Source: Chloroflexota bacterium
GTDB taxonomy: Bacteria; Chloroflexota; Anaerolineae; B4-G1; SLSP01
Direction: 5' to 3'
Assembly (NCBI GenBank): GCA_019873725.1
Contig: JAIOAS010000001.1
Span: forward strand, 40,257 to 104,256
DNA: 64,000 bases
Shown one piece after another: positions 3,592-54,978 of this stretch; positions within the stretch are counted from its first letter, which is position 1, and every line of letters starts with the position of its first letter. The position numbers and the translations under genes were made by a program. A model generated the notes under the pieces. The model saw only the letters and a list, made by a program, of their open reading frames with translations, made no database searches and had not been told where the DNA came from.

Positions 3592-4734
3592 TTAAAGAAT
3601 ACTAACCGCCTTGGCTATTTGGCTAATTGCCTCCCGTATATCGCTTTCCGTTGTCATTCGACCTAATGAAATGCGGATAGATGCACTGGCCTGTTCGCGC
3701 GTCAAGCCTATCGCTTGCAAGACATGCGAGGGTTCCATTGCGCCAGTATGACAAGCCGCGCCGGTGCTCATCATCAAACCTGGCAAACGGAGCAGCAATG
3801 CATCAGCTTCGACACCCTCGAAAGTGATATTGGTGGTGTTTGGCAAGCGGGGCGCGTGTTGAGCATTGATTCGCAGTTTGGGGATGGCTTCCAGCAAGCC
3901 ACGTTCCAATTCGGCTTGATACTCCCTCAGACGAGCACTTTCTTGAGGTAGTTCTGCGGCGACAATTTCGCAGGCTGCACCTAAGCCCACGATAGCTGGC
4001 ACATTCGAGGTTCCGGCACGCAGACCGGACTCCTGTCCGCCGCCCTCCAACATTGGGCGGATAGGAATAGAACGTGCTCCGTCACGTATGTACAATACGC
4101 CGATTCCTTTGGGACCGTACAACTTATGTGCGCTGCATGAGAGCAAATCGACACCCCACTCCCGCACATCACAGGGGATTTTGCCTATGGCTTGTGCCGC
4201 GTCCGTGTGAACCAGTGCGCCGTGATGGTGCGCGAGTTCCGCAATTCTGGCGATAGGCTGAAGTGTGCCGATCTCGTTATTAGCAGCTTGAATCGAGACC
4301 AGGAAAGTATCTTCACCTACAGCCTGTTCTAGCTCATCGAGCGATACTAGCCCATTGTAATCTACTGGAAGGATAATTTCCTCAAAGCCTTGTTCAACGA
4401 GCCGCTTGCAGGGGGCAAGTACAGCTTTGTGTTCGATGGCACAGGTGATGATCTTGTGGCGGGCAGTTGGAGCGTACTCGGCTGTTCCTAAAATCGCAAG
4501 GTGATTGCTTTCGGTAGCGCCGGAGGTGAAAACAATCTCAGCAGGGAGAGCCCCAATCAGCGCGGCGACCTGCTCGCGAGCGTTGTCCATTGCTCGCGCC
4601 GCTTTACGTCCCAAAACGTGCAGACCGTTAGCGGGGTTGCCGTAGACTTCACTGAAGTAGGGCAGCATCGCCTGTATAACACGAGGGTCACACGGGGTGG
4701 TAGCGTTATAATCCAGATATATGGGACTGCTCAT
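3592..4734 (-). CDS. class-V aminotransferase / cysteine desulfurase (IscS/NifS/DndA/SspA-like)
   Basis: N-terminal YLDYNATTP and SCSAHKLYGPKGIGVLYIR (PLP-lysine region) are typical of NifS/IscS. It is the last gene of the co-directional defence cluster. Confidence 0.8.
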   Translation of the reverse strand: MSSPIYLDYNATTPCDPRVIQAMLPYFSEVYGNPANGLHVLGRKAARAMDNAREQVAALIGALPAEIVFTSGATESNHLAILGTAEYAPTARHKIITCAIEHKAVLAPCKRLVEQGFEEIILPVDYNGLVSLDELEQAVGEDTFLVSIQAANNEIGTLQPIARIAELAHHHGALVHTDAAQAIGKIPCDVREWGVDLLSCSAHKLYGPKGIGVLYIRDGARSIPIRPMLEGGGQESGLRAGTSNVPAIVGLGAACEIVAAELPQESARLREYQAELERGLLEAIPKLRINAQHAPRLPNTTNITFEGVEADALLLRLPGLMMSTGAACHTGAMEPSHVLQAIGLTREQASASIRISLGRMTTESDIREAISQIAKAVSIL

Positions 4735-4765
4735 AGTTTATCCGGTGGACGAAGATGACGTCGGC

Positions 4766-6193
4766 CTACGACAACTCATACTGAATATCTTCATCATATT
4801 GCCGATACTCCGCATCCAACATATACAATTGATCCCAAACCAGTTGGCGCAGTTCTACTGCCGGGCGCACACAATAGATTTCAAAATCTTCCAGACTGAC
4901 CGCTCCGTGTGGAAATTGCAACTTCATTAGTCCGCTGGCAATCAGATGTACGGCGTCTTCGTTGCGTTTATAGCGTTTTCGCCCCGTTAGAGTGACAGTG
5001 CGGCTGACGTATTGATTGGCACTGACATCTTCACGCAACGCCAGCAAAGCATCACCGAAAAAATCGGATTTTAATCCTATGCCCTGTGCGAAGGATTCAC
5101 CGCTTAGTTTGCGTACCTTCCAACCAGGCAGGATGCCACGAAGACGGTCGAGAAAAGCTGTCTCTTGCAGGAATTCGGGAAGTTCTTTGACCAACGGTGA
5201 AAGGATAGGACGTTGTTCATTATCGAGCTGGATATTTGCCAGCATAACGAGGCTGCACGCACTGGCTGTCTCATACATACCGCCGCGCGTCAAGCGTCCA
5301 TTAGCTAAAAAGCCTTTGAGTCCGCCGACGATTTCCTGCGGTTTCTCGAACTTGAGTGTTTGGACTTCATCTAACACTACCACAGCAAAACGCGCTAGCA
5401 AGCCCCATTGTCCGCTGGCATTGTTGACGAACAACACCGCCGGAGAGACATTTCCACCACTCATCAATCGTACACGTGGATTGATGTTTTCGTACAAGTA
5501 ACTCTTGCCCGTGCCTTTGGGAGCGAGTTCCAGTAGGTGCAGATTCTTTTCCACAAGCGGAAGCAAACGGCAGAGCAAATAAGTCTTCTCATTCTCGGTA
5601 AATGCCCAGGGACTGTAACCCATTGAAGTTAACAGCAGGGCACGCCACTCATCGAGTGTAAAGGCCGCTCGTTTTTCTTTGAATATCTCCAGGTTCACTG
5701 AAGCCTGCATCGGCTTGAAAGAGGTTATAGCAATACCTTCCTGAGTATCCACTAACTCCACTACACCCCACATACCTTGTTTGAGTAGATCAGGGTATGC
5801 TTCCACAATACCGTCGCCAATCTGAACCTCGGATAACCCTAGAAGCTTGAGTTGCGCAACACGCTCCTTAACGCGCCGGGTGAGAACAACTTCAACCTCC
5901 ACCGGCGTAAGCACCTTGACCACTTCACCATTGAGCAGGCGATTTTTGATGATTCTGGCCTCGTCAGGCAAGGGCAGAAAACGATCGGCCCAGGTCTGGA
6001 TTTTGGTCAATTCTTCCGGGGTAACCGCACCTTCCCCTGGAGCAAGGCTATCCAGGATCCATTCGGCTACGTAGGCCGGCACACTGCGCCGGTTCAACTG
6101 GCTAGAGGGTAGACGTCGCTTGTCTATCGCCAAGCGACCAAAGACCTGGCTCGCCTTCTGGTTCAATGCTTCGGGGGTGAGGACATCACTCAT
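4766..6193 (-). CDS. brxL: P-loop ATPase, BrxL-like (BREX Lon-like ATPase family, short form)
   Basis: Walker A LAPKGTGKSYLYENI and Walker B VVVLDEVQTL. Positioned directly downstream of PglZ, as in BREX cassettes. 4-nt overlap with the pglZ stop. At 475 aa it is shorter than canonical BrxL (~680 aa), so the Lon protease part may be absent. Confidence 0.5.
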   Translation of the reverse strand: MSDVLTPEALNQKASQVFGRLAIDKRRLPSSQLNRRSVPAYVAEWILDSLAPGEGAVTPEELTKIQTWADRFLPLPDEARIIKNRLLNGEVVKVLTPVEVEVVLTRRVKERVAQLKLLGLSEVQIGDGIVEAYPDLLKQGMWGVVELVDTQEGIAITSFKPMQASVNLEIFKEKRAAFTLDEWRALLLTSMGYSPWAFTENEKTYLLCRLLPLVEKNLHLLELAPKGTGKSYLYENINPRVRLMSGGNVSPAVLFVNNASGQWGLLARFAVVVLDEVQTLKFEKPQEIVGGLKGFLANGRLTRGGMYETASACSLVMLANIQLDNEQRPILSPLVKELPEFLQETAFLDRLRGILPGWKVRKLSGESFAQGIGLKSDFFGDALLALREDVSANQYVSRTVTLTGRKRYKRNEDAVHLIASGLMKLQFPHGAVSLEDFEIYCVRPAVELRQLVWDQLYMLDAEYRQYDEDIQYELS

Positions 6194-8352
6194 AAGTCTA
6201 GCTCCTTGAGCAGGTCATCAGGCTGCTCGTAAAGTGTCTCAACCTGAAGGTGAGGAACGACTTCGCTCGAGAAAGTAGTGCCGTTGGGTTGGCGGAACAA
6301 CAAGGTGGCCTTTAGATTCTTTTTATCAGACTCGGTCGGCCAGGGTGTTAGGGAGAGGTTAAAGCGAGTCTCATCAAGCGGTGGAATCTGCCAGTTGCCG
6401 CCGACTTGCACACCATGAGAGAAAGAAACGCCTAAACACTCCAGTATTATCTGGCTGGTGTTGATAATCACAACAGTGATTGTTCCAACGTGCTTGGCCT
6501 CGCCCTTGCCACTGATCACAATATTCAGCGCGGGTGTTTTAGCATCGCGCACGAAGACAAACCACGGAACAATAACCTCTTCAGGAAATAATCCGCCGTG
6601 CGGGTAGGGATCATAGCCCGCTTTGTCGTTCTCAAAACTCTCTTCCCCCCAGGCAACCAGCATATCATGCGCCATTTCAAAGCGTTCACCGTGAACGGCT
6701 ATTGTACCAGCGGTTTCGTCTATCGAAAAACCATGCTCGTCAAACTCCAGGTCGAGTTTGCCCCAGGCGACTCGTCCATGGGCTTGCATTCCTTTAGGAG
6801 TTGGTAAGCAGCGTGGTGATTTGGGATTGAGCAGCCGTCCGTGGTCGCTGGTGATGATGATGTGTAGAATGACTGAGTTGGGAAGACTCTGGACAACTTC
6901 AGATATTGCCTGAAGGATGCTCTCCAACTTCGCATGCACTTCCCGTTCCCGCTTGTCTTCACTCTCAAAGTGATAAGCTTTGTCAGGCTGTTCAACACGC
7001 CAGAAAACAACTTCACCAGACCGGATGTCTTTCAGGCCGCGTTTAGGGGAGGTATGATCAGGCAGAATGTATCCCAAAGGAGGATACTGCGGTGATAGCC
7101 GCGGCGGTACGCCTTTGAGCAGGGCATCTTTGGCAAACTCGGTGACGGTGGGCATGGGCGCAAAGCAGTACGATTTTTGCTCAAGCTGCAAACGTTCTAT
7201 TTTGGCCCCCATGGTGTGGATGAAGTCTTCGGCGTCCCAGGCAGGCAGCCCATCCAGGACAACACACAAGGTGAGGGCTTGCGGCGCAGCATCATGCAGA
7301 CGAGCGGAAATTTGGAACGAGAGGTTGCCCGGTTCAAGCAACCAGCGTGGGTAACAGGAGAGATACCACCGGACGAAATCTTGAGCACGTTGGACAATAC
7401 ATGTTCGCGCCTGCTCATCGCCAAAACGCGCTTGCCAGCGACGATAGGGGAGATATTCGGCCTCGAACCAGGCTAACACTGCTGTGGGGTCCTGCGGTAG
7501 AGCAGAGGGTTCTGGCGGCGGTAAGCGTTCTTCGAGTGTCGCGAGCGTTTGCGTGTTGAGATACGGCTGAAGATCGCGTAGAATACCACGGGTAAGAAGA
7601 GGAGTGTTTTGCTCGTAGAACTGAACAGCCAGTTGCGCCAATTCCTGACGTAAGGCAACTGACATCGGGAAAGCAAACATTTGAGCAAAATATACGCCCT
7701 TGCTCTCAATCAACCTTTTCATCCAGGCAGATTTGATTTCTGTCAGCAATGGTTCAGGAACCGGTAGCGGAAATTCATCCAGACTGTCAAGTTTTTCATC
7801 CGCTGCGCCTAGCCATCGCCAGAGTATGGATTTAGCGCCTTCAGAGGTAAACACACGATATAGTCCAGCTTCAGAAGCATTTACCGACCGTCGCTCCAGC
7901 TCAGTGGCGAGATAGTGCAGAATGACAGTTTCGGCATCATCAGGCCGATGCGTGAACAGCCATAGCAGCCAACGCGCAGCATGTTCGCGCGAGGGCGCAC
8001 CTTGCCAAAGCGCATAATCGTCAGGATAACAACAGTTCAGGACAAACGTAGCAGTCATTTGTTCGGGTGAGGCTATGGCCATGCCCATTTTTAGCGCCAA
8101 CTTGTCCGCCTGCTGCTGCAATAAGGCCGGAAAGGTGCGCTGTAAAACGACACGGAGTGATTCTCGATAACAATAAGGTCGTCCGCGCAGGCTATAAAAA
8201 GCCTCTGCCCAGGCACTCAGGCGCTCGCCTCGAATCAGGAGTGGTGTATCATCGGTAGCATAACGTAAGAAATCTACTTCACTGGCGATGACCTGATAGC
8301 CAGGCGGTGCGGGTAGGTCGCCCTGACGGTCGAGTATAACTTCGGTATGCAT
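6190..8352 (-). CDS. pglZ: PglZ-domain protein (alkaline-phosphatase superfamily, BREX)
   Basis: VVLDGLPAWDAEDF and IIITSDHGRLL (the TxDHG motif characteristic of PglZ). Size ~720 aa. The start overlaps the brxC stop (ATGA). Confidence 0.7.
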   Translation of the reverse strand: MHTEVILDRQGDLPAPPGYQVIASEVDFLRYATDDTPLLIRGERLSAWAEAFYSLRGRPYCYRESLRVVLQRTFPALLQQQADKLALKMGMAIASPEQMTATFVLNCCYPDDYALWQGAPSREHAARWLLWLFTHRPDDAETVILHYLATELERRSVNASEAGLYRVFTSEGAKSILWRWLGAADEKLDSLDEFPLPVPEPLLTEIKSAWMKRLIESKGVYFAQMFAFPMSVALRQELAQLAVQFYEQNTPLLTRGILRDLQPYLNTQTLATLEERLPPPEPSALPQDPTAVLAWFEAEYLPYRRWQARFGDEQARTCIVQRAQDFVRWYLSCYPRWLLEPGNLSFQISARLHDAAPQALTLCVVLDGLPAWDAEDFIHTMGAKIERLQLEQKSYCFAPMPTVTEFAKDALLKGVPPRLSPQYPPLGYILPDHTSPKRGLKDIRSGEVVFWRVEQPDKAYHFESEDKREREVHAKLESILQAISEVVQSLPNSVILHIIITSDHGRLLNPKSPRCLPTPKGMQAHGRVAWGKLDLEFDEHGFSIDETAGTIAVHGERFEMAHDMLVAWGEESFENDKAGYDPYPHGGLFPEEVIVPWFVFVRDAKTPALNIVISGKGEAKHVGTITVVIINTSQIILECLGVSFSHGVQVGGNWQIPPLDETRFNLSLTPWPTESDKKNLKATLLFRQPNGTTFSSEVVPHLQVETLYEQPDDLLKELDL

Positions 8353-11300
8353 TATTCCCCCATCAGTTCGTGCAGACGTCTCAAGCACTGGCGGCGGGCT
8401 TCGATATCCTTGATTCGAATAAATCGGTCTTCGATTTGCGCAACAAGGTCTTCTTCCAGTCGCTTTTGCAAGGTTTGCTTGAGTTGCGCCAGCCGAGTAA
8501 GACTCTCGGAATCCAGAAAGGCAGGAGGTTTCTCCAGTTGCTGAAGCAAAGTGGCAGGATTTTCACCCCCCTTGTGGCGCTGGGCAAAAGTTTGCAACCA
8601 AGTCTTGGCCTCTTGGGTCTTCTGTTGATGTAGCTTCTCAATGTTTGCCTTTCTGGTCTCCAGCAAACGCCGCTGCTCAGTACTAAGCAAAGCTCCGTAA
8701 TGCGTTTCGGCTGTGGTGAGTTGTGCTTTGATAACACTCAGGTCATCTGGCGTGTTGCAGGGAAGCCTGTCAAGCTTTTGAAGTTCCTCGAAAAAGGCTT
8801 CGAGTTGGGTGATTCTTTGCTCAGTTTCACACAAGAGTTGATAGAGAGGTGTTCCTTGCACTGAGTCCAAATTGCGCAGTACCAGGTCGCGCTGGTCTCG
8901 CAATTTGTTTATACTGTCGGCATGCTCTATAGATTCAGGCAAAACAGCCGCAATTTGCTCGTATTGGTGTATACGGTTTTCGATTTGTGCGGATTTTTCA
9001 TCGCGTAATTTGGATGTTTTCGGGGAAAGATTAGTTAGTTGCAATAGTCTTTCACGGTAAGCATATAAGGTTGACAGTCCGTGAGAAGGTGCCATACGCT
9101 GCAACTCAGCAACAATCGCTTTTTCGCTTTCCTGTTGTTTTAGTTCCTCATAAACTTGTTTCAGTTTGTCCAGAGCTTCTTCTACGCGCTTTGCTGACAT
9201 GGGATACTCAGTCAAAGCTTTGCGGGCACGTTGGAGTTCCCGCTCGTGCGGTTTATAGTCGCTCAAATCCTTTAGACTTTCATATCGAGTGCAAAATGAT
9301 TCTAACGCGGTCTGCATGGCATCTTCCCATCGGGTTTGCAAAATGCATAGACCCGGTTCGGAAGGCATGACTTGCCGGGGAACAGGAAACTCTTTCAACG
9401 ATTCACGCAACTTGAGCAAGTCGTCAAAACTTGCGGATTGCAAAGCTCGCAACCATGCGCCAGCCCTTTGGTCATATTCTTGCGCCTGTTGCAACGCTTC
9501 CTCAAGGCGCGGACGCAATTGTTCGATCTCTTCTCGCTTGGCTTCGGGTAAACGTGGAGTGGCGAGCGCCTCTTCAAGTTTGACCAGAGCCTCATTCGCC
9601 TCAGCAATCGAGAAGGATTTGCCCTGTCGTATTTGCTCCAATACAGTGTTGGCTTGGTTAAATGCTTCGTCGGGTTTGGAGCGGCCGATAGCAAGCGGCG
9701 ATAGAATACAGATACGGTTAAGGAAGTCCTGCGGGTTTCTCGATTCGTCAAAGAGGCTCTTGAGCTGGCTTAGTGAAACGATCTTACCGCTCAACGACAA
9801 GCGAATTTCGTGCTGGTGGAAACCAATCCATGCGGATAGTAACAGAGTAAGCGTATTGTAATCGTGCCCATAGGGCGGATTGAGCAAGGTAAGCAAGACC
9901 GTTTGAACATGAACATCGTTACAGCCTGCAGGGAAGGTTTCTTCAAGTAAGTTCCAGGCTTCTTGTAGGGCCCGCGAGGTCGGGAGCTGAATAGTATAGT
10001 CTTGGGTTGTCAGCAAGCCCCATTTCTGCATCAAATAGAAGTTAGCCACCTGATATTGCATGTCTTTGTTTGCCAGATTGTGAATACTACTCCCTGCTGT
10101 ATCGCTGAACAACCAACGCGCGATATTTTGTACAGCCGTGCGCAACTGATTGACACCCTTGCCGCCTACAGGTCTGTCAGAAAAATCCACCCGATACACA
10201 TACGCCTGTTTATAGCACTCAGCAATAACCGCCTTAAGTGATAGATTCCTGAGCGTCTGGACCGAGGCGCGATACGCAACGGGTAAAACATAATCTTTCA
10301 AATTTCGCTGGATTTCTGCAAAGTTTCCTGTATCGCCGATCCACTCGTCTACAGCTCGCTTGAAGTTCGCCTCCGCCAATGCGCTTTCTTGTTGATACAT
10401 GACCGTCCCGATTTTTTCCCGTTCCGAACGTCCTAGAGTTTCAAGCGCTTTCATCCGTTGAGCCGTAGCCACCAGGCCAGGCGTAGGATGTTTGGGTAAA
10501 ACGATAATTACTGGCAAAGGATGAGCCAAAGTCCCTAATGCCGAGTCCAACACAGACGGAGCAGTTTGCTGTAATTGTATTTTCTCTTCCTCACTCTGCG
10601 CGATGAGCCAGATGACTACCCCGCGAGAACCCTCTTCAATGCCACTCACTCCTGCACGATAAGGTTGGAGTAGTTTTCTTAGTTCGTCTGTCGTGAATAG
10701 GTCAGCAGTGAATGCCGCTTGGCGTGGCGCCCAATCCCCAATGTTTCCATAATTCAAAGAGATCTCTAGGGCGGGTACTGCCGCGCTTATTTTGCTCATT
10801 AGCGCATGATCGACTGGCGTTTCATCTACTGCCTTTTGGATGATTTTTTCCGTTTCGGGCGAGCGAACTCCAGGAGGAAGGAGAGATGAAATCTTGTTAT
10901 AGGGATCGTACTGAATCACTCTGGCTTCGCTCAGTTCGCGTAAAAGAACCTTGATTCTTTCAACACTTAACCCACACAAATGGCTAAGTAAATCAAGTTG
11001 CGCATCTTTCCGCAGTTTCAGTCTGTCTAGTTCTGCCACAGCTTGCTGCAATAAGAGGGCTTTCAGAACGGCGCGATGTTCACCAGTGAGAGGGATAGGG
11101 GAACTCTCAAGTGCAGTGCGATAGGCTGTATACCAACTCTTGGAAATTTGCTCTCCGAAGAAATCTACCAGTGTAATTGCAAAGACGAAATTAGGACTAC
11201 CATCCAGCAATTGGGCTGGCTGTTGACGCTGGTCTTGCCACATCCGGCGCACAAATTCCAGGGCGGTACGCGGGCTTTCGCCCGCACCTGACTCAAAGTT

Positions 11301-12557
11301 GTGAAACGACAAAATGGCCGTTGTCAATGGATGCAGAGGAAAGCAACCTTTGACCACTTTTTGCGCTGCAGCCTCGACATTCCATTTTAATGCTTCGTCG
11401 TATCTTTTGGAAAAGTAGCTATATAGAGCTTCTCGGCCTCGCGCCAACGCTGGTTTTACAGCACGCTGTTCAAGCCAAGCCGCCCAGGCAACATCGTCTT
11501 GTTTCAGGTAAGCGTCAAGGACACTTTCCATAAGCGAAAACAGCCGAGCGCGTTTGTCCTTGGGCAAACGTTCTAGTTCTTTTTTAACGCTGTCGCGGCG
11601 TTGTCCGAGGGCATAAGTCTCGGCTACGGTATCGACATCATGTTGAGAAAAAGCTAGAAATGCACTTTTCCCAGGGCGCTTGCTGATACCGTTGAGCAAT
11701 TCTTGTAATTTACCTGCCACACGCGAGGCGGCGTACTTTTGCAGGAACAAACTAAATTCATCGAACAGAATCAGTAGACCACCGAAATGATAAGGCACAC
11801 ATACTTTGTCTACCGCCCACAACACCAATTCTTCCAGGTTGACCTCACCACCGAAATCAGGGTAGACGCCCGTGACCTGTTTGAATACCTCGCGGACTAA
11901 CGCATAGGCGCCCTGCTTGCGCAAGTCGCTCGTCAAATGGGCGAGATCAGTGTTTTGGACAGCCAGAAAACTTTCAGCCTTTTGGCGCGCTTCGCCGCTG
12001 AGGTTCTTCAGCCATGCGGCTGCATGAGCATACCAGAAGGGCATTTCCAAACTACGTGTGGCGTTGTGCTCTTGCAGCGCATGTTCTAGGGCACGCACAA
12101 AACCTTCCTGAAGATCGTCGCAGCGGTCACCTTGCAAGCGCACCACTAGAAATTCGCCCTTACTCTTCTTGAAATCGCGGTAGCCGGCCAACTGCGACTG
12201 GTTATTGAGCGCCTGTCCTAGCCGATCCAGCACAATCTTCACCTCTGGTGAATCTGCTGGGCGAGCGAAGAAGTTTGCCAACGCCAATGCTAGGTGGCTT
12301 TTGCCGCGCCCATAATTGGCGGTCAACACAATACGATAATCACCGCGTTCGACGGTGAAAGCTGTCTTTAGCGTATCCAATACGTCTTTGGCGGCGTAGT
12401 CGCGCTGGGCAGCGCCAATGGTCACCGGCGCATGAACGGTGAAAATGTACTTTTGGAGTAATTCGCGATTGAGCTTGGGGTCTTCATAGTCGCTTAGTTG
12501 CACGTCTGAGCGAAATTCACCCTGCATGTCCATGCTAACCAATTCTTCTATACGCAT
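8352..12557 (-). CDS. brxC: BrxC/PglY-like large P-loop ATPase (DUF499-type), 1401 aa
   Basis: N-terminal Walker A VLTANYGRGKSHLALALANFF (GxGKSH, as in BrxC). Very large protein with a coiled-coil-rich C-terminal half. Position upstream of pglZ. Confidence 0.65.
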   Translation of the reverse strand: MRIEELVSMDMQGEFRSDVQLSDYEDPKLNRELLQKYIFTVHAPVTIGAAQRDYAAKDVLDTLKTAFTVERGDYRIVLTANYGRGKSHLALALANFFARPADSPEVKIVLDRLGQALNNQSQLAGYRDFKKSKGEFLVVRLQGDRCDDLQEGFVRALEHALQEHNATRSLEMPFWYAHAAAWLKNLSGEARQKAESFLAVQNTDLAHLTSDLRKQGAYALVREVFKQVTGVYPDFGGEVNLEELVLWAVDKVCVPYHFGGLLILFDEFSLFLQKYAASRVAGKLQELLNGISKRPGKSAFLAFSQHDVDTVAETYALGQRRDSVKKELERLPKDKRARLFSLMESVLDAYLKQDDVAWAAWLEQRAVKPALARGREALYSYFSKRYDEALKWNVEAAAQKVVKGCFPLHPLTTAILSFHNFESGAGESPRTALEFVRRMWQDQRQQPAQLLDGSPNFVFAITLVDFFGEQISKSWYTAYRTALESSPIPLTGEHRAVLKALLLQQAVAELDRLKLRKDAQLDLLSHLCGLSVERIKVLLRELSEARVIQYDPYNKISSLLPPGVRSPETEKIIQKAVDETPVDHALMSKISAAVPALEISLNYGNIGDWAPRQAAFTADLFTTDELRKLLQPYRAGVSGIEEGSRGVVIWLIAQSEEEKIQLQQTAPSVLDSALGTLAHPLPVIIVLPKHPTPGLVATAQRMKALETLGRSEREKIGTVMYQQESALAEANFKRAVDEWIGDTGNFAEIQRNLKDYVLPVAYRASVQTLRNLSLKAVIAECYKQAYVYRVDFSDRPVGGKGVNQLRTAVQNIARWLFSDTAGSSIHNLANKDMQYQVANFYLMQKWGLLTTQDYTIQLPTSRALQEAWNLLEETFPAGCNDVHVQTVLLTLLNPPYGHDYNTLTLLLSAWIGFHQHEIRLSLSGKIVSLSQLKSLFDESRNPQDFLNRICILSPLAIGRSKPDEAFNQANTVLEQIRQGKSFSIAEANEALVKLEEALATPRLPEAKREEIEQLRPRLEEALQQAQEYDQRAGAWLRALQSASFDDLLKLRESLKEFPVPRQVMPSEPGLCILQTRWEDAMQTALESFCTRYESLKDLSDYKPHERELQRARKALTEYPMSAKRVEEALDKLKQVYEELKQQESEKAIVAELQRMAPSHGLSTLYAYRERLLQLTNLSPKTSKLRDEKSAQIENRIHQYEQIAAVLPESIEHADSINKLRDQRDLVLRNLDSVQGTPLYQLLCETEQRITQLEAFFEELQKLDRLPCNTPDDLSVIKAQLTTAETHYGALLSTEQRRLLETRKANIEKLHQQKTQEAKTWLQTFAQRHKGGENPATLLQQLEKPPAFLDSESLTRLAQLKQTLQKRLEEDLVAQIEDRFIRIKDIEARRQCLRRLHELMGE

Positions 12558-12577
12558 TATTCCCTCCCGAAGAATAC

Positions 12578-13042
12578 TTATTTCAGAACACCTTCGGCTA
12601 TCTGGGCCGTATAGCGGCGTTGCATATCAAAGGTAAATAGTTCGGATGTCTCTGCCGGCACGGCCAGTATCAATTTGATGCGCGGGTAAGGCAAGCCTTC
12701 CAACGCCTCGCGCCAGAAACATTCACGTTCGTTCATTTCCAATCCCAGCAAGAGCAAGTCCAAAGTATGCACCAATAAGCAATCTTGCGTTTGAGTTGAA
12801 TGGGCGAGTGTGCGCAGCAAATCCATAAGATGCCGATGTCCATCTGGGCGCGTAAGGCCGGAAAAATGCGTTCCTTCCGGCAAACTTTGCAGATAAGCTT
12901 GCCGTGCATCCAATGCTTGTACATTTAGACGCACAGCAATATCACCTTCCTGGCCGAGGTATGCGCGCGGCATCAACCATACCCCTACACCGGTCCGCGC
13001 GCCGGGTTGACGCAGTGCATCCCGCAGAGCTTCGATGTTCAT
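12578..13042 (-). CDS. hypothetical protein (154 aa), BREX-cluster accessory
   Basis: ORF tightly packed between the DUF4007-like gene and brxC. No motif. Confidence 0.45.
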   Translation of the reverse strand: MNIEALRDALRQPGARTGVGVWLMPRAYLGQEGDIAVRLNVQALDARQAYLQSLPEGTHFSGLTRPDGHRHLMDLLRTLAHSTQTQDCLLVHTLDLLLLGLEMNERECFWREALEGLPYPRIKLILAVPAETSELFTFDMQRRYTAQIAEGVLK

Positions 13043-13045
13043 CGC

Positions 13046-13858
13046 TTACCCCACATACATCTTTTGCAGAGCGTATTCCAGACTGGGCTGTAACAAGACC
13101 ACCTGATAGGGGCGGGATATCCGGTAAAGATCGAGCATACCCTCTTGTTTGAGTTGCAGGAGGAGGCGCGTTAGGCCTTCTTCGCCCAGCAAGAATATCG
13201 AGGCGAAATCCCCCTGGCTCAAGTCATCCAGATTGATCGTGAGCCGCTCATCATAGTGGGCGCGCCAATATTCGGACAGCGCGTAGCCCAAAGCCCAAAG
13301 CGGTGGTGCATCTGTTGAGAGCACGCGGTAAGTTTTGGTGTTTATCTCTTCCACCAAGCCCAAACGTCCTAATCCATCGGTTTTGAGATATGTGCCGAGA
13401 AAAACTGTGATGGTACTACGCACCGAATCCGGCGCGGGGTTTTTGCCTGCTTCTTGCTGAAGAAAGGCCGTCAGATCGGCAATCAGATCGGCGGCGGTGA
13501 AGATGTTGCCCGGCACAAAGCGCGTGCGCACCAAATAGTTCCAAAAGGCCGTAGGGCCATGTGGCGCGGCCAGGTGATAATGCAGCAGCCATTGTGTACT
13601 GACTTTTTCCAGGGTGGGATCATGTTGGGCGACAAAGCGTCCGAAGACGGTCAGTGCATTGCTCTTGTCCAACAACCCGGCACGTAAGGCGTAACGCGGC
13701 ATAGCTTCCTGATAGACTGTTCCTAAGTCTGTACTTTTTCCCAAATCTTCTCGTTTAAAGCCAGGTTTATATTTGGCGAGAGAAATGACTTTAGCAATGG
13801 ATGAACGGGACAGAGAAAACGTACGATGAAAGGTCAGGCTCATATATTCTCTCCTCAT
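13046..13858 (-). CDS. DUF4007-like protein, paralog of the 18356..19273 product
   Basis: Aligns with the 305-aa protein: AMPRYALRAGLLD vs AAAIRYWGLALGLLN, and STQWLLHYHLAAPHGPTAFWNYLVRTRF vs GSLWLLHWLLASNQERGLVWYLIFSRYF. Start adjusted to avoid overlap with the PAPS-reductase gene. Confidence 0.5.
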   Translation of the reverse strand: MRREYMSLTFHRTFSLSRSSIAKVISLAKYKPGFKREDLGKSTDLGTVYQEAMPRYALRAGLLDKSNALTVFGRFVAQHDPTLEKVSTQWLLHYHLAAPHGPTAFWNYLVRTRFVPGNIFTAADLIADLTAFLQQEAGKNPAPDSVRSTITVFLGTYLKTDGLGRLGLVEEINTKTYRVLSTDAPPLWALGYALSEYWRAHYDERLTINLDDLSQGDFASIFLLGEEGLTRLLLQLKQEGMLDLYRISRPYQVVLLQPSLEYALQKMYVG

Positions 13859-14682
13859 TATAGATGACAAATAAGACAACTTTCATCTCCTGATTCGTTC
13901 GCTAAGAAAACGTCTGCTAAGGTCAAATTTACTCTTGATTGCTGTTGACGTTCCAGACGGCGGCTGTACTCTTCTCGAATCACTCTTTGACGTTCGGGAG
14001 AACGTAATTCTCTTAAGCTTTCTCGAGAAGACCACGTATATCGTTCGCCAGTTTCAAGGTTTTCTCTCTCGAAACTTTCGGCTCTTTCATATAAATCTTT
14101 ATGGTTCTCTAGTAGCCCCAACCATTCAATTTTTTGTTGAAAGAAGCAAAAATAACAACCCGAACGCGAACGCCATTCGTAGTATTTGGGCAAACCAAGC
14201 CCACTCTCGTCTAAAATTCGAACGACGTCTTCCCGCTTTATATCATCCTCTATAAAAGGGTAACGCGCTATGATATTTGGTTTGGTAGAAACATAACCTT
14301 TTCGATGTTGTTCATCGGCTCGTATACCAATGTAGTTATAACAAATATCATTACTGATTTCTTCTTCAAAAGGCTTAATCTTTAGGTATTCTGTACACCA
14401 ACGGACTTGTGCTGAAGGTAGAAATCCGCCTCTAGCTTTGAGCATATCTTCAAACGATTGTCTTGCTCTAATCTTTTTAATCTCTCTTCCTAAAAATACT
14501 TCCAATTTGTCCAAATATTCGTACGTTTCCGGCAGTTCTTCGCCTGTATCGCAAAAGACATATTCCAGGTTGGGAATACGGCCGCGCAGATAAATAGCCA
14601 GGGCAGTGCTGTCTTTGCCGCCGGAAAGCGAAACGATGTGCCGTTCAGGACGAATCAAATTTACCTCCTTCAGTCCACACAT
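13858..14682 (-). CDS. brxP: PAPS-reductase-family PP-loop ATP pyrophosphatase (BrxP / DndC / SspD-like)
   Basis: PP-loop IVSLSGGKDSTALAIYL. Cys clusters CYFCFF and CLICHL. GC ~40% versus ~65% in flanking DNA. Confidence 0.8.
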   Translation of the reverse strand: MCGLKEVNLIRPERHIVSLSGGKDSTALAIYLRGRIPNLEYVFCDTGEELPETYEYLDKLEVFLGREIKKIRARQSFEDMLKARGGFLPSAQVRWCTEYLKIKPFEEEISNDICYNYIGIRADEQHRKGYVSTKPNIIARYPFIEDDIKREDVVRILDESGLGLPKYYEWRSRSGCYFCFFQQKIEWLGLLENHKDLYERAESFERENLETGERYTWSSRESLRELRSPERQRVIREEYSRRLERQQQSRVNLTLADVFLANESGDESCLICHL

Positions 14683-14936
14683 ACTTCAATCATTTTGCCG
14701 AAAACCTGCGCCAGCCGACAGGCCACATACAAGGAGACGCGCCGTTTGCCAGACTCAATCTGGGAAAGATAGGAACGGTCAATACCTGCTTGTCGCGCGA
14801 CTTCATCTTGGGTCATCTGGACTTTCTCTCGCTCGGTTTTTAACCGTTGCCCAAAATGTTGGTAGAACTCGTCTTGTTTACTACTGTCAACAAACGAATC
14901 CCCCCGCTTTTCTATGCGGGGGGATTCGTTCATCAT
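14670..14936 (-). CDS. XRE-family helix-turn-helix transcriptional regulator
   Basis: MTQDEVARQAGIDRSYLSQIESGKRRVSLYVACRLAQVF is a classic Cro/CI-type HTH. Low GC. Confidence 0.6.
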   Translation of the reverse strand: MMNESPRIEKRGDSFVDSSKQDEFYQHFGQRLKTEREKVQMTQDEVARQAGIDRSYLSQIESGKRRVSLYVACRLAQVFGKMIEVCVD

Positions 14937-15018
14937 TTCACAATGGGTTAATTCTATGAGAGGTGATACCATTGAGGCCTCCTATGTTGATTGGTGTTTG
15001 GGGTATCTAACGCATTGA

Positions 15019-18000
15019 TCATTGTTGCCCGGCCTTTTTCTGTTGTTTTAACAAGAGCTGCAAAGCCAAGTTGATTACTGCCGGATCATAATTATAGCGA
15101 CTGAGAAAATGGGTCAAGTCTTGTGTGAGCATCTCGGCGCGTTCCCGTGTTTCATCAGATGCTGTTGTCATTTGCGTGAGCGTATCATTTGTGTGTTCTT
15201 GCCACAAAACACCGATATATTGCGCTTGCGCAGAGAAACGTTCAACATCGGCGTCCGTCCACATACGCGCCGGACGGTTGGCAATCACAGCTAAAACACT
15301 TTCCAATGCAGCGCGTGAATCCGCAGCTTCGGCGGCGCGCTTGAGTAGGGGCAGCAAAATGGGGTGTGAAACTCTCGAAACGAGTTGAGTGGCAAGTTGA
15401 CGGAACGATTCCCAACTCGCTTCGCCATCGGGCAAACCGCAAGCCGTCAGCCAGGCATCACGCGCCCAAATTAACAAGTTGGGTGTAGCATTGACCAACG
15501 CATCCAGCGCCGTATTCAGCCGCTCGAAAAAGACCTCGAAGCGATCCTGATCAAATTCCCTTTCCTCGAACGCAGGCAATCCCAACGCTTCCGGCACTTC
15601 CACAAACAGGAACCTTTCGGGAGAGCGTGATGTTTCCACCGCATGGCGCAACTTGAGAGCGATTTCAGGCAGACGGTGGGTGCGCTGGGCATATTCAGGC
15701 AAGGCTTTCATACGGCTAATCACCGTCCGTGCAACCGGCATCACGTAGGGTGACACACCCAGACCACGCGCCATACGTGCCAATACGGCAGCCCGCAATC
15801 CCGTCACGCGGCAGCCTGCCAGTGAGAACATCTCCGGGCGCCGCAGCAGTACTTCCCAATCCGCTACACTCGGCTCGACAAGCAAAGTCCCTTCTTTGTA
15901 GAGCGTCATTTCGTTCTCATAAACCTTGTAGAAAACGGCTAGCATAACCGGTATAACGCCCTGTGTCATGCCAAACGGTGGGGCACTCAGGCGGCCATAG
16001 AGATCGGTCACGGGCTGGGGGTCTGGCAAGCCAGTAAAGACGAAATCATAAATGGCTTGCCATGCGGCAGTCAGATGCAGGCTATTTTCGGCGGGCGGGG
16101 CAATGCGCCAGTTTTCTCCATCCAGGCGGTGCATATCGCCTTTGTGCAGCAAGGCTTCGTACATACTTCGCTCTGGCGGGAACCCCTGGATACCCAAAAT
16201 GGGTTGTTCAGCGCGGGTAAGAATGCCCTCGATGAGCGTGCGGCGCGCTGCTGCCCCCTGCGAGGTCAGCTCGCGGCGGTTGAGCAATTCGTTCCACACC
16301 CGAGGCGAGTGGGGGTAGAGCGCATCGCAAATTTCCGAAAGCAATCCCGAAAGACCGCGTTGCACGTGCTCGGAGACTTTGGCTCCCTGATAGAACCACT
16401 GACAGCCTGCCAGAGCAGAAATCCGATGCGGATTGATAGCTTCATCCAGTTCCAAACGAATCATGCGCTCAATAGAAGCCAACCGCGCCCGCCATTCACG
16501 TCGGGCCACCGGATCGTCACGCAGTTCAGGCGTGTTTTCGCGCACCCAATGTAAACCGCGCAACTCCTGGGCCAGTTCCTTCAGGCGGATTGCACGACCC
16601 GCTACACCGACGACAATCTCTGAGCGGCTGCTGAATGCCTCTGATTGTGCCCATCGCGTGAACTGGTCTATTTCGGTCAATGTACCAGGCAGACATAAAA
16701 GCACCAATCCGCTGGCCTCAGGAGAAGAAATGAGCGAAACCTTGTCCAGATTAAAGGAATCGACATAACGCACATCGAAAAAGCGCTGGGTGCCGGTCTG
16801 ATAGCTATGCCGGCGGGGAAAAAGAGGTCTTGGCGGCAGATACCCTTGCAGCACCTCGGCAATGCTGAAGGTCATCCCCAGCATACCGCGGGCAGTATGT
16901 AAACGTTCCTCAATGTCCACATCACTGCCTTGCCAGACAGCGTAAGTGTCGTTGAAGCGACGATAAACAATAAGCGAGCGACGGCGTAACGCATCTAGTC
17001 CAGCACGTAGGGCAGATTCGTTCCAATCGGGAGCGTAAAACGCGCTCAGGATCATCGCCTCAGTCGCCTGTAGAGGGCCAATTTCCCCTAACCAGTTGAG
17101 CAAGCTAATCGTTTTCAGCAGATCGGTTTCGATTGGGCTAAGATTGGGTGTGTTCTCCAACCGTTCCAATGCTTCGGTCAACGGACGAGCGTGGCCTGAA
17201 GCGTAAATCCGTCCCTGATAATTAGCTGCCAGATAGTCGAACAAATCGGGGAGGCGTAGGAACTCTCCACTTGTGTGGCCGGCGAGAAATTCCTGAAAGC
17301 CAAACGGTTCCTGCGAAGCCAAATAGGCAAAAATCGAACGCTCGTTTTGTGCTAGGCGACGAAAGAAATACGGTAAGGCAACAAACGCACTTGGGTGAAG
17401 GGGATATGCCCGGCAAGCGAGAGTGGTGAATTCGGAGAGGGGTATCGTTGCCGGACGCCAGCCAGCTTCTTCCACGGCTTGTATTGTTTCAGCAAAGGCC
17501 AGTGTCAATGCTGGTGGATCGGGCGTATCGTTCAAGGCACGCGCCAGTAAACGCATTTGCTGAACTGGCGGTTCCAGGAAGGGAATATCCTCAAAACGGC
17601 CTTGCACCTTAGCCCATTCGCGCTGTGTGGTGCTGTCCAGCAAGGCGGCATATTGCTCAAAGGCCTGGTGCAAAATGCCCGCGAAGACCAGCGGCCGCTC
17701 ACCGCTGCGGGCAGCAAACTCGGCTAACTCCTGCAAAAGATAGACATCGCTCTCGTATGGATGGGCGGCGGCGTGCTCCAGAGCTTTGCCCAACTCATCA
17801 AACAGGATTAATGCCCCGCGCGCGCCGGAAGGCGTTTGACTCACTGTTTCCAAGAAGGCTTCCACCCAGCGAAGAAAGACACGGCTATCGGCATGGCGGG
17901 CTTCCTCAAGGCTTTCCCGCAATGCAGGCGCAAACACTCCGGTTTTCAACGTCTGCTCAAATCCACGCGCCAGGCACTCCTGAAGCGGCGCCCGTGCCCC

Positions 18001-18363
18001 CGTCACCGCTACCGTGACGAAACCATCGTTTCCTCCTATCTGCTCTTGCAATCGCTCGGTCAGCAAGGGATCGGACTGCTCCAACATCTTCCAGGCAATC
18101 GTATGTCCCGTTTGTCGCGCATCCAGCAAATGAGCGAGGAACAACCCAAAGAACGATTTGCCCGAACCATACGGTCCGGTCAATATCCAGGCTCTGGCAT
18201 TGCCCGCCAGTCCATCCACAACGCGCCCCAACGCGGCCAACGCCTGTGCTGTCAGAGTGTATCCAACCAGCAGATCGCCGTTAGGTAGATCGCTTTCCAG
18301 CCGCACGGCGCGTAAATTGTTTTGACGAAGGTGAATCACCTCACGTAGCAGCGTCTCAGTCAT
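15019..18363 (-). CDS. second BrxC-like / DUF499-type large P-loop ATPase (SspC-like?), ~1115 aa
   Basis: Walker A ILTGPYGSGKSFFGLFLAHLL. N-terminal region is alignable with the 1401-aa BrxC-like protein. The start is set at MTETLLREV. Confidence 0.55.
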   Translation of the reverse strand: MTETLLREVIHLRQNNLRAVRLESDLPNGDLLVGYTLTAQALAALGRVVDGLAGNARAWILTGPYGSGKSFFGLFLAHLLDARQTGHTIAWKMLEQSDPLLTERLQEQIGGNDGFVTVAVTGARAPLQECLARGFEQTLKTGVFAPALRESLEEARHADSRVFLRWVEAFLETVSQTPSGARGALILFDELGKALEHAAAHPYESDVYLLQELAEFAARSGERPLVFAGILHQAFEQYAALLDSTTQREWAKVQGRFEDIPFLEPPVQQMRLLARALNDTPDPPALTLAFAETIQAVEEAGWRPATIPLSEFTTLACRAYPLHPSAFVALPYFFRRLAQNERSIFAYLASQEPFGFQEFLAGHTSGEFLRLPDLFDYLAANYQGRIYASGHARPLTEALERLENTPNLSPIETDLLKTISLLNWLGEIGPLQATEAMILSAFYAPDWNESALRAGLDALRRRSLIVYRRFNDTYAVWQGSDVDIEERLHTARGMLGMTFSIAEVLQGYLPPRPLFPRRHSYQTGTQRFFDVRYVDSFNLDKVSLISSPEASGLVLLCLPGTLTEIDQFTRWAQSEAFSSRSEIVVGVAGRAIRLKELAQELRGLHWVRENTPELRDDPVARREWRARLASIERMIRLELDEAINPHRISALAGCQWFYQGAKVSEHVQRGLSGLLSEICDALYPHSPRVWNELLNRRELTSQGAAARRTLIEGILTRAEQPILGIQGFPPERSMYEALLHKGDMHRLDGENWRIAPPAENSLHLTAAWQAIYDFVFTGLPDPQPVTDLYGRLSAPPFGMTQGVIPVMLAVFYKVYENEMTLYKEGTLLVEPSVADWEVLLRRPEMFSLAGCRVTGLRAAVLARMARGLGVSPYVMPVARTVISRMKALPEYAQRTHRLPEIALKLRHAVETSRSPERFLFVEVPEALGLPAFEEREFDQDRFEVFFERLNTALDALVNATPNLLIWARDAWLTACGLPDGEASWESFRQLATQLVSRVSHPILLPLLKRAAEAADSRAALESVLAVIANRPARMWTDADVERFSAQAQYIGVLWQEHTNDTLTQMTTASDETRERAEMLTQDLTHFLSRYNYDPAVINLALQLLLKQQKKAGQQ

Positions 18364-19273
18364 AATACCCCCGCAACAACTCATATCCCTGTTCAGGCAA
18401 GATGGTATGCAGGTATATCTGGCGCAATCCGGCGGTCTCTTGCAAGCGCAGCGCACCGTTCGTGAGAGATTCTAATTGCTCTAAATAGGTCATGACACTG
18501 TTTTCATCCAGTTTGAAAATCTGCCCTGGACTGCCTGGTTGATAAACACATTCGTCTACAGTTGCCGTGCGTCGCTGAGCAGCTATTGTGTTCAGGAACC
18601 CAAACAAGGCATAGCCGAACACAGCCGCAGGCAGTGAAGATTTAGCGCCAATGTCAAAACGATAAACCCCATCGCCGGGCGAAAGGCGTAGTAAGTTCAG
18701 ATCCACCAGTGGGCAATCTAGACTTTCCTCGAAGTTTCCCCCCTTACGACCTTGTGACGGGACGTAAGTACGTAGAAAGACATCCACTTCGCGCGTAACC
18801 ATGCCTTCGGTTGTCTCAATTCCCATTTGCGTCAATTGTTTCCTGATGAATTCTGTGATTTGCTGCTTGCGAAACTCAACATCGAAATAGCGTGAAAAGA
18901 TAAGATACCATACTAATCCTCGCTCTTGATTACTGGCTAACAGCCAGTGCAATAACCAAAGCGAGCCAATATCCTCCAGATAGGGGTCCCAGCCGCCATC
19001 GGCCAGCAGGCTGCGCCCCAGTTTAGAAGGTTCGATAGCGCGGGTCTGACTGCCCGCGCCGGGAATATAGTTCAGCAATCCTAACGCCAATCCCCAGTAC
19101 CGAATAGCAGCAGCCATATTCTTCCCGACACCCAATTCCACAAAGGCATCTTCGCGGCTGAAAACTAATGGATCACGCAGAGCGGCATCCAACCCTTTCT
19201 TTAGCCAGCCCTGCCGAAAAACGAATTTTTCATGTCCGCCAAAAGGTGGGCGGGATGAGTGTGTTACGGACAT
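18356..19273 (-). CDS. DUF4007-like protein (possible SspB-like), first gene of the defence operon
   Basis: 305 aa with FVFRQGWLKKGLDAAL near the N-terminus. Paralogous to 13046..13858. Assignment to the DUF4007/SspB family is from memory of that family and needs an HMM check. Confidence 0.45.
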   Translation of the reverse strand: MSVTHSSRPPFGGHEKFVFRQGWLKKGLDAALRDPLVFSREDAFVELGVGKNMAAAIRYWGLALGLLNYIPGAGSQTRAIEPSKLGRSLLADGGWDPYLEDIGSLWLLHWLLASNQERGLVWYLIFSRYFDVEFRKQQITEFIRKQLTQMGIETTEGMVTREVDVFLRTYVPSQGRKGGNFEESLDCPLVDLNLLRLSPGDGVYRFDIGAKSSLPAAVFGYALFGFLNTIAAQRRTATVDECVYQPGSPGQIFKLDENSVMTYLEQLESLTNGALRLQETAGLRQIYLHTILPEQGYELLRGYYD

Positions 19274-39167: not shown

Positions 39168-39317
39168 AAAAAATCGAAAAACGCGACGCGCTTCGCGCGG
39201 ATGGGACCTTCGGCCTGCGGCGGTCAGGCGTTGGGCAAACATCCGCGCTCTTCCAGGTTATCCCAAAGGTCCAAAGGCCAAAGGGCCAAATTACAAAGCG
39301 GGCGCTGCGCGCGATGG
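39168..39317 (-). other. conserved ~150-nt 3' element downstream of VR1, ending in a GC hairpin plus U-tract (terminator)
   Basis: Near-identical to 44044-44193 downstream of VR2. Minus-strand end reads CGCGCGAAGCGCGUCGCGUUUUUCGAUUUUUU. Confidence 0.6.
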
Positions 39318-44045: not shown

Positions 44046-44193
44046 AAAATCGAAAAACGCGACGCGCTTCGCGCGGATGGGACCTTCGGCCTGCCACGGC
44101 CTGGCGTTAGGCCAGCCTCCGTGCTCTTCCAGATCATCCCAAAGGTCCAAAGGCCAAAGGGCCAAATTACAAAGCGGGCGCTTCGCGCGGTGG
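44044..44193 (-). other. conserved 3' element downstream of VR2 (copy of 39168-39317) with terminator hairpin
   Basis: aaaaaatcgaaaaacgcgacgcgcttcgcgcggatgggaccttcggcctgc...atcccaaaggtccaaaggccaaagggccaaattacaaagcgggcgc is shared with copy 1. Confidence 0.6.
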
Positions 44194-54369: not shown

Positions 54370-54432
54370 TTGTTACTCTCCATAACGATGTGGCTGCGAT
54401 TTCCAAATCGCGTGGTCTGGAATCTCCCACCG

Positions 54433-54978
54433 TTATTTGTACGCCGCCAACTGCGTCGCCAAATCCAGCAAATCCCTGTGCAATTGCGTGGCTTCGTCGT
54501 AGTTCTCGGCCAGCACTTGCAAAAAGATAACCAGCGCATTTTGCCCATCCGCGCGATACTGATCAGCCAGTTGGCTGATGACCATATCCACCTGGGATTT
54601 GGGCATATTCGTCATCGCCACGCTGTAGCGCCACGGCGTCAGCATCTCGTGGGCGAGCACGGCCTGCAACGCCTGGTTGTTGGCGAACTCCGCACACTGC
54701 AAGAGCGTGTTCTTGAGCGGCGACGATAGCTCCGCGGGGATGCCGGACGTGCGCTTGCGCGGCTGTGGCGCAGGAGCGGGTTGGGGCACGCGGCCTTGCA
54801 GTTGGGCGTCAATCTCGGCGATTTCGGCTTCACGAGCCTGCGCCTGGCGTTTGAGCTTGAGTTCGTCTGCCGCGCTCAAGGTGTGGCTCAGTTGGGCCAT
54901 AATGGCATCGTATTCTTCGATGAGTTGCGCCCGGCGAGATTCGAGGGCGCGGCGTTTGTAGTCGGGTAAGGTAGACAT
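54433..54978 (-). CDS. adaptor protein: N-terminal coiled-coil EAD plus C-terminal Bell/EAD-like helical domain
   Basis: N-terminus LPDYKRRALESRRAQLIEEYDAIMAQLSHTLSAADELKLKRQ. C-terminus ELSSPLKNTLLQCAEFANNQALQAVL...GQNALVIFLQVLAENY aligns with the STAND N-terminus and the 160-aa protein. Confidence 0.5.
   Translation of the reverse strand: MSTLPDYKRRALESRRAQLIEEYDAIMAQLSHTLSAADELKLKRQAQAREAEIAEIDAQLQGRVPQPAPAPQPRKRTSGIPAELSSPLKNTLLQCAEFANNQALQAVLAHEMLTPWRYSVAMTNMPKSQVDMVISQLADQYRADGQNALVIFLQVLAENYDEATQLHRDLLDLATQLAAYK

Follow-up and report, generated by a model that had tools for sequence, protein, structure and literature searches.

Two DUF4007–ATPase pairs in an operon that joins Ssp phosphorothioation genes to a BREX-like core in a Chloroflexota bacterium

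We analysed a stretch of 64,000 nucleotides from a Chloroflexota bacterium (assembly GCA_019873725.1, contig JAIOAS010000001.1, positions 40,257 to 104,256), hereafter the window. It contains an operon of ten genes on the minus strand (3592-19273), in the order sspB-sspC-(XRE)-sspD-DUF4007b-p154-brxC2-pglZ-brxL-sspA, in which a DUF4007 protein accompanied by a large AAA+ ATPase appears twice: SspB with SspC, and a second DUF4007 protein, DUF4007b, with a second ATPase, BrxC2. Consecutive genes overlap or are separated by at most 46 nt, and sspD and sspA are each present in a single copy. We propose that these genes form a single composite defence operon, similar to bacteriophage exclusion (BREX) systems and based on DNA phosphorothioation (PT), in which SspB/SspC, together with SspD and SspA, would write the PT mark, and DUF4007b/BrxC2, together with p154, PglZ and BrxL, would act as reader and effector. 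We assign this reading a probability of around 0.6.

Relationship between the two pairs

A first-pass annotation of the window had described the two small proteins (305 and 277 aa) as paralogs, had noted that the two ATPases (1115 and 1401 aa) share an N-terminal P-loop architecture, and had proposed an internal duplication spanning positions 8352-19273. The similarity was confirmed and proved more extensive than described. The quoted motifs are present in the small proteins (AIRYWGLALGLL and WLLHWLLASNQERGLVWYLIFSRYF in SspB; MPRYALRAGLLD and WLLHYHLAAPHGPTAFWNYLVRTRF in DUF4007b) and in the P-loops of the ATPases (GSGKSFFGLFLAHL in SspC; GRGKSHLALALANF in BrxC2). Both small proteins match Pfam DUF4007, with E-values of 7e-78 for SspB and 8e-19 for DUF4007b, and pairwise BLASTP aligns them over their full length with 24% identity (E 6e-9). 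Comparison with hhalign of ortholog profiles, built from 40 related loci, aligned 249 columns of the two proteins with a probability of 99.5% (E 4.4e-23). For the ATPases, pairwise BLASTP retrieved the P-loop region only (E 0.004); the ortholog profiles of BrxC2 (residues 2-979) and SspC (residues 5-867) aligned over 807 columns with a probability of 99.4% (E 3.7e-21), taking in the Walker A, Walker B, (F/Y)PLHP and PP(Y/F)G motifs. This last result is decisive only with the SspC ortholog profile, as the BrxC2 profile aligned weakly with the lone SspC sequence (probability 7%). Because the small proteins align over their full length and the ATPase profiles over 807 columns, the similarity is not confined to P-loops or to low-complexity regions.

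Some of the original gene models needed adjustment. The lengths of 305 and 1401 aa stand, and those of the other two proteins become 1114 and 265 aa. The longest open reading frame (ORF) for sspC (15019-18456) encodes 1145 aa from a GTG, and on an identical Logan contig the gene is called from the ATG at 18363; likewise, DUF4007b has 277 aa from a TTG (13046-13879) and 265 aa from an ATG at 13843 that is preceded by a ribosome-binding site (RBS). The ORFs lie where they had been placed, and the proposed span overlooked the XRE gene, sspD and p154, as well as pglZ, brxL and sspA, which extend the operon to position 3592.

The duplication did not stand as a recent event. Paralogs within the locus share only around 19-27% identity, and the two DUF4007 proteins have separate sets of invariant polar residues, with only 15 near-invariant positions in common. 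The Walker A and Walker B motifs are invariant in both ATPases (GSGKS, including its lysine, and the DE of Walker B among 29 SspC orthologs; GxGKS and FDEFS among 33 BrxC2 orthologs). SspB matches crystallised SspB (PDB 6juf/6lb9) with an E-value of 3.7e-41, as against 6e-9 for DUF4007b, and SspC matches the PADLOC SspC model over its full length with an E-value of 1e-299. The nearest proteins to SspB and SspC are thus Ssp proteins from other phyla, with DUF4007b and BrxC2 much more distant; the two DUF4007 proteins, and likewise the two ATPases, are true but ancient paralogs.

The first pair and the Ssp genes

SspB, SspC, SspD and SspA all match their PADLOC models over the full length, with E-values of 2e-85 for SspB, 5e-108 for SspD (residues 14-273 of 274) and 1e-152 for SspA, which also matches DndA (4e-153) and Pfam Aminotran_5 (3e-88). 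SspD additionally exceeds the gathering score of Pfam PAPS_reduct (E 1.6e-13). The PADLOC BrxC model (PDLC02478) is also matched by SspC, with an E-value of 1e-250, and a search of SspC against PDB sequences yielded no match. Because of these full-length matches, we identify the first pair, from sequence comparison, as the canonical SspB and SspC of the SspABCD phosphorothioation machinery, with sspD encoded between the two pairs and sspA at the end of the operon. SspD is predicted to be the sole sulfur-inserting enzyme of the operon and SspA its sulfur donor. The mark made by SspABCD is a single-strand PT at 5'-CpsCA-3' on host DNA. Scans with Pfam, PADLOC and NCBIfam found no effector of the SspE or SspFGH type in the Ssp half.

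The window also contains a gene for an XRE-family helix-turn-helix (HTH) protein between sspC and sspD, preceded by an RBS and matching Pfam HTH_3, HTH_19 and HTH_31 (precomputed on the identical contig). Among the related loci, only that of the window and L023 have an ORF of this kind at this position. The protein may be an accessory regulator of the controller type, acting on the downstream genes.

The second pair and the BREX-like core

The second DUF4007 protein has a triple winged-helix fold like that of SspB and BrxA. This agrees with the description of DUF4007 as a BrxA-like tripartite HTH by Rakesh and Krishnan (PMC12839542), who also describe BrxB as a PglZ partner consisting of an inactive STAND domain. 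We propose DUF4007b as the BrxA-equivalent reader of DNA or PT in the BREX core; it does not match the Pfam family of BrxA, DUF1819. The next gene product, p154, has no Walker A motif and no Pfam match, and occupies the place of BrxB in the gene order of BREX type 1.

BrxC2, encoded directly upstream of pglZ, is matched by no PADLOC, Pfam or NCBIfam model. Indeed, Pfam and PADLOC scans of 16 of its orthologs produced only sporadic, weak matches to SspC, BrxC or DUF6079 (E-values of 3e-6 to 0.01), and its profile retrieved only insignificant coiled-coil matches among PDB sequences. Relative to the region shared with SspC, it carries an additional insert (residues ca. 165-240) and, from ca. 980 to 1401, a helical tail of some 420 aa in which E, L, Q and R are abundant. 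Relatives of BrxC2 number at least 391 at 90% clustering, a count obtained by scoring only the 8000 candidates that share most words with it. Their length varies across lineages from ca. 1400 to ca. 1880 aa (for instance, in L020, L021, L026 and L027, and in the representatives P0087, of 1877 aa, and P0110, of 1749 aa), apparently as a result of differences in the C-terminal helical tail.

The two remaining genes of the core were readily identified. PglZ, a candidate for the BREX effector, matches the PADLOC PglZ model PDLC02549 over its full length (E 2.4e-90) and is borderline for Pfam PglZ, at 24.7 bits with a gathering score of 25. BrxL matches Pfam BrxL_ATPase (E 3e-94) and BrxL_N (E 3e-19), PADLOC BrxL (E 5e-211) and TIGR02688 (E 1.5e-150; 501.7 bits with a cut-off of 329). 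No modification enzyme belonging to this half was found in the Pfam, PADLOC and NCBIfam scans. Because a BrxA-like and a BrxB-like protein are followed by a BrxC-type ATPase, PglZ and BrxL, the downstream half reproduces the order of BREX type 1, brxA-B-C-(pglX)-Z-L, the Ssp module taking the place of PglX.

Conservation of the operon and probable exchange of its modules

A genome scan seeded on BrxC2 motifs retrieved 40 loci. The nine genes of the operon other than the XRE gene occur in the same order and on the same strand in 22 of them, and nearly all the other loci end at contig ends. SspC is present in every locus with enough upstream sequence (ca. 30 loci), and sspB-sspC lie upstream in all but the variants L035 and L041. 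The hosts are mostly Anaerolineae (Chloroflexota), and include as well Thermomicrobiaceae (Thermomicrobiota), Chthonomonadaceae (Armatimonadota), Hymenobacter (Bacteroidota), Deinococcota, Omnitrophota, Caldisericales and Cyanobacteriota. For example, the full nine-gene operon is found in the cultured Thermomicrobium roseum DSM 5159 (L042), on a megaplasmid (NC_011961.1, 90215-105778; TRD_RS09730-09770), and the operon is also carried by plasmid pPg_05 of Pseudanabaena galeata CCNP1313 (L043; NZ_CP112879.1, 30496-51246). In both, BrxC2 and p154 are annotated as hypothetical proteins.

Individual loci show further particularities. The T. roseum operon directly adjoins a type III-B CRISPR-Cas (cmr) locus, and its second DUF4007 gene is short in RefSeq (222 aa), after a gap of 344 nt from sspD. 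The P. galeata operon is a variant with a MazF toxin-antitoxin pair after sspC, a gene for a Uma2-family (PD-(D/E)XK) endonuclease between sspD and the second DUF4007 gene, a BrxC2 of 1803 aa, and a gene annotated as a DNA phosphorothioation-associated putative methyltransferase upstream. SspC is split into several ORFs in L007 and L032, and BrxC2 in L017 and L041, which could reflect frameshifts, assembly errors or decay.

We compared pairwise-distance matrices of the gene products over 21 complete loci, as a descriptive measure and not a formal test. Two blocks were apparent: SspB, SspC and SspA co-vary with rho values of 0.76-0.86, and DUF4007b, BrxC2, PglZ and BrxL with values of 0.74-0.91. 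SspA thus co-varies with SspB and SspC and not with its physical neighbours. Moreover, in L003, L004 and L009 the products SspB, SspC, SspD and the distal SspA group with a set of loci distant from the window, and those from DUF4007b through BrxL group with the window's own group. The likeliest explanation for the separate clustering of the Ssp genes and the DUF4007b-BrxL genes in these three loci is that the central cassette was exchanged, its boundary falling between sspD and DUF4007b.

A sulfur-binding domain associated with the second DUF4007 protein

Ten loci contain a domain of ca. 150 aa between sspD and DUF4007b, as an ORF of its own in nine of them and fused to DUF4007b in L032. The same domain is fused to the N-terminus of 16 of the best 150 DUF4007b representatives (403-464 aa; P0357, P0363, P0373, P0380 and others). 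Its profile matches the PT sulfur-binding domain (SBD) SBDHga (PDB 8H0L) with an E-value of 5.9e-39. The sulfur cavity of SBDHga is formed by residues H25, K26, L75, P76 and H79 (PMC10602919), and the invariant P-H-K and P-x-x-H of the domain alignment correspond to its H25, K26, P76 and H79. Our literature search found no paper combining DUF4007 with an SBD.

Proposed function and alternative explanations

The operon could work as two co-adapted modules, each built from one DUF4007 DNA-recognition protein and one ORC/Cdc6-type AAA+ ATPase. In the first, SspB, SspC and SspD, with SspA as sulfur donor, would place PT on host DNA. In BREX type 1 the PglX methyltransferase is needed both for modification and for defence, and the Ssp module would stand in for it. 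In the second, DUF4007b, p154, BrxC2, PglZ and the short BrxL would survey DNA for its PT status and turn PglZ and BrxL against phage DNA that is unmarked. Because one SspBCD module pairs with interchangeable restriction modules, such as SspE or SspFGH (PMC8092258), there is precedent for a writer with a separate effector. We hold at about even odds the more specific proposition that this is a BREX system with self-marking and self/non-self reading placed on separate paralogous DUF4007-AAA+ machines, in which DUF4007b/BrxC2, helped in many lineages by a fused SBD, would read PT and license PglZ and BrxL.

Several observations weigh against this division of labour. SspD distances correlate weakly with either block (rho 0.35-0.53 over all loci), and the exchange signal comes largely from the single clade of L003, L004 and L009, the block structure being weaker once it is removed. 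The likeness of p154 to BrxB is only at the level of the generic AAA+ fold, with other AAA+ proteins scoring equally or higher, and p154 does not match the BrxB family, Pfam DUF1788. The window itself lacks an SBD: a profile hidden Markov model of the SBD extension found nothing among its six-frame ORFs, and only 14 nt separate the sspD stop from the DUF4007b ATG at 13843, so PT reading by the DUF4007b of the window is extrapolated from its orthologs. Last, BrxP, a fusion of a PAPS reductase with DUF4007, is enough together with one BrxC to make PT in the BREX type 4 of Bacteroides (PMC12914056), and the adjacency of sspD and DUF4007b mimics the domain order of BrxP; DUF4007b/BrxC2 could therefore also write.

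This last point leads to an alternative in which the genes downstream constitute a full BREX type 4 system that both writes and reads PT, with a BrxP split into sspD and DUF4007b and followed by BrxC2, PglZ, BrxL and the desulfurase; SspB and SspC would be an added second writer that shares SspD and SspA and provides a second motif or a higher density of marks. The PADLOC BrxP model slightly favours DUF4007b (E 3e-4) over SspB (E 9e-3); the best correlation of SspD distances is with DUF4007b (rho 0.53), and the catalytic motifs of both ATPases are intact. Nevertheless, SspD fits its own model far better than that of BrxP (E 4e-11), which SspD and DUF4007b each match only in part, and in L003, L004 and L009 it moves with SspB, SspC and SspA and not with DUF4007b. 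No fusion of a PAPS reductase with DUF4007b was found among the best 150 DUF4007b representatives; one candidate for an SspD-DUF4007b fusion, P0494 (591 aa), was rejected as it has no PAPS_reduct match. These 150 were filled by proteins of the DUF4007b type, and a word-indexed search likewise retrieved only orthologs. A self-sufficient downstream half should also give loci without SspB and SspC, against the presence of SspC in all the ca. 30 informative loci, and a PT-binding SBD between sspD and DUF4007b suits a reader more than a writer. We consequently consider the split BrxP, although the strongest of the alternatives, unlikely.

Alternatively, an orphan SspABCD and a BREX-like system could be independent neighbours in a defence island, with no functional coupling. 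Defence systems do cluster, the window has other conflict systems, and Yuan et al. refer to such loci as gene islands, with the caution that neighbours can act independently (PMC12914056); besides, the partial exchange of modules shows that the halves are separable. Against this, the gene order is identical in 22 complete loci from several phyla, the genes of the operon in the window overlap or lie at most 46 nt apart, and sspA always lies beyond brxL, so that the BREX core is nested within the Ssp genes. Likewise, each half lacks what the other would provide, a modification enzyme in the BREX half and an SspE/SspFGH-type effector in the Ssp half, and SBD fusions link the BREX half to PT. Independence of the two halves therefore seems to us quite improbable. 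Finally, a DUF4007-ATPase pair could have been duplicated in tandem inside a BREX operon in recent times and then have diverged fast. This would account for homology across the full core lengths, and we find it very hard to credit given the low identity of the paralogs, the closeness of SspB and SspC to Ssp proteins of distant taxa, paralog lineages that are already distinct in every sampled phylum, and a DUF4007b clade that alone has at least 149 representatives (50% clustering, E < 1e-30, among the best 150 of an exhaustive profile search).

Genomic surroundings

The entire operon lies inside a block of low GC content (ca. 0.50 over ca. 3.5-20 kb, compared with ca. 0.64 in the flanks), which points to its horizontal acquisition. 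The window contains no tRNA, the ORFs that flank the operon island encode neither integrase nor transposase domains, and scans for promoters and terminators gave nothing above the shuffled expectation.

Elsewhere in the window, a second conflict-system island extends over 52846-63948 on the minus strand, with a GC content of ca. 0.53, and two large NACHT STAND NTPases have C-terminal FGE-sulfatase (formylglycine-generating-enzyme-like) domains. Beside them lies an ORF of 1316 aa with no Pfam match. Coordinates of all these features, and of the SBD ORFs of related loci, are collected in Table 1.

Table 1. Features of the window and SBD ORFs of related loci. Positions are those of the window, except for the SBD rows, where they follow the name of the locus.
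Feature	Position	Strand	Description
sspB	18356-19273	minus	305 aa; first DUF4007 protein; predicted DNA-recognition/nicking subunit of the Ssp phosphorothioation module
sspC	15019-18363	minus	1114 aa; first ATPase, ORC/Cdc6-type AAA+; start overlaps sspB stop by 8 nt
XRE-family HTH	14670-14972	minus	100 aa; overlaps sspD start by 13 nt
sspD	13858-14682	minus	274 aa; PAPS-reductase-fold ATP pyrophosphatase
DUF4007b	13046-13843	minus	265 aa from ATG; second DUF4007 protein
p154	12578-13042	minus	154 aa; AAA+/STAND-like, inactive; no library match
brxC2	8352-12557	minus	1401 aa; second ATPase, SspC/BrxC-type AAA+; no library match
pglZ	6190-8352	minus	720 aa; alkaline-phosphatase superfamily; start overlaps brxC2 stop
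brxL	4766-6193	minus	475 aa; short form, BrxL_N and AAA+ ATPase, without Lon protease domain
sspA	3592-4734	minus	380 aa; class-V aminotransferase-fold cysteine desulfurase; final operon gene
NACHT STAND NTPase	39291-42041	minus	C-terminal FGE-sulfatase domain
NACHT STAND NTPase	44167-47226	minus	C-terminal FGE-sulfatase domain
1316-aa ORF	47653-51603		Beside the NACHT STAND NTPases
EAD9-CHAT protease	52846-54369	minus	Second conflict-system island
NB-ARC/AAA_16-TPR STAND	55050-58745	minus	Second conflict-system island
VWA	58752-59864	minus	Second conflict-system island
MoxR-like AAA	59840-61078	minus	Second conflict-system island
EAD9-iSTAND	60786-61925	minus	Second conflict-system island
Further EAD9 protein	61825-62814	minus	Second conflict-system island
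376-aa ORF	62818-63948	minus	Second conflict-system island; no matches
SBD	L003:8225-8710		Separate ORF
SBD	L007:8204-8683		Separate ORF
SBD	L014:8164-8667		Separate ORF
SBD	L018:2517-3092		Separate ORF
SBD	L019:8158-8688		Separate ORF
SBD	L024:7207-7737		Separate ORF
SBD	L028:8158-8661		Separate ORF
SBD	L030:8170-8679		Separate ORF
SBD	L039:8167-8676		Separate ORF
SBD	L032:7971-9275		Fused to DUF4007b

Significance and comparison with known systems

If our reading of the composite operon is correct, it would be a natural BREX variant with genetically separable modification and exclusion, and would give the BrxA-like subunit a concrete role as reader of an epigenetic mark. An operon in which a complete Ssp writer is kept apart from a BrxA/B/C/Z/L core could allow both functions to be mutated separately, and the reader step would become accessible to biochemistry through the known PT-binding domain that many lineages have on the BrxA-like subunit; T. 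roseum DSM 5159 and P. galeata CCNP1313 are cultured carriers. Because the PADLOC, Pfam and NCBIfam models for BrxC miss BrxC2, operons of this type are probably under-called; BrxC2, DUF4007b and p154 carry annotations as hypothetical or DUF proteins.

The first-pass annotation had regarded the two pairs as not described for BREX loci; the architecture is, however, already on record. Yuan et al. (2026, Nat Commun 17:1717, PMC12914056) name gene islands of the sspBCDB-brxCZL type in 40 strains, including Cyanobacteria and Deinococcota, and describe BrxP as an SspD-SspB fusion and BrxC as an SspC homolog. The content and order of these islands, with sspB, sspC, sspD, a second sspB-like DUF4007 gene, brxC, brxZ (pglZ) and brxL, match those of the window, which is another member and adds a new host lineage (probably Chloroflexota) and the extra XRE gene. 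They are listed there as islands, with no PT or phage results for this type and without analysis of the paralogy, the roles of the pairs, p154, sspA at the operon end, the co-evolution of the modules or the link to SBD. Points that we did not find in the literature searched are the putative BrxB-like p154, the apparent agreement with the gene order of type 1, the way in which the distal sspA varies together with sspB and sspC, the likely cassette exchange, and the association of SBD with the second DUF4007 protein. The suggestion in the first-pass annotation of two fused systems, or of partner-specific pairs, came close to an arrangement of an Ssp module with a BREX core, save that the first pair is not simply BREX.

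BREX type 4 is likewise based on PT, and comprises a PAPS reductase, DUF4007, an SspC-like AAA+ ATPase, PglZ, BrxL and often a cysteine desulfurase (PMC12839542, PMC12914056). [quoted passage not shown] With the SspABCD-SspE and SspABCD-SspFGH systems the window shares SspA, SspB, SspC and SspD, as well as the scheme of a PT writer with a separate, exchangeable effector module (PMC8092258). In the window the partner is neither SspE (DUF262/nuclease) nor SspFGH, and is instead a BREX core of five genes, two of which encode paralogs of SspB and SspC.

BREX type 1 has the same order of a BrxA-like DNA binder, a BrxB-like inactive AAA+ protein, a BrxC-type ATPase, PglZ and BrxL (PMC12839542), the equivalence of DUF4007b and p154 to BrxA and BrxB being one of fold and position only. 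Unlike type 1, the operon has no PglX, would rely on a separate Ssp module for phosphorothioation, and its BrxL lacks the Lon protease domain. Lastly, an SBD is also found in the PT-dependent restriction enzymes ScoMcrA, SprMcrA and Hga (8H0L), and the domain of the orthologous loci matches that of Hga and keeps its sulfur-cavity residues. Those enzymes combine the SBD with an HNH or PD-(D/E)XK nuclease that attacks PT-DNA, whereas in the loci related to the window its partner, by fusion or as a neighbour, is a DUF4007 protein encoded in an operon predicted to make PT.

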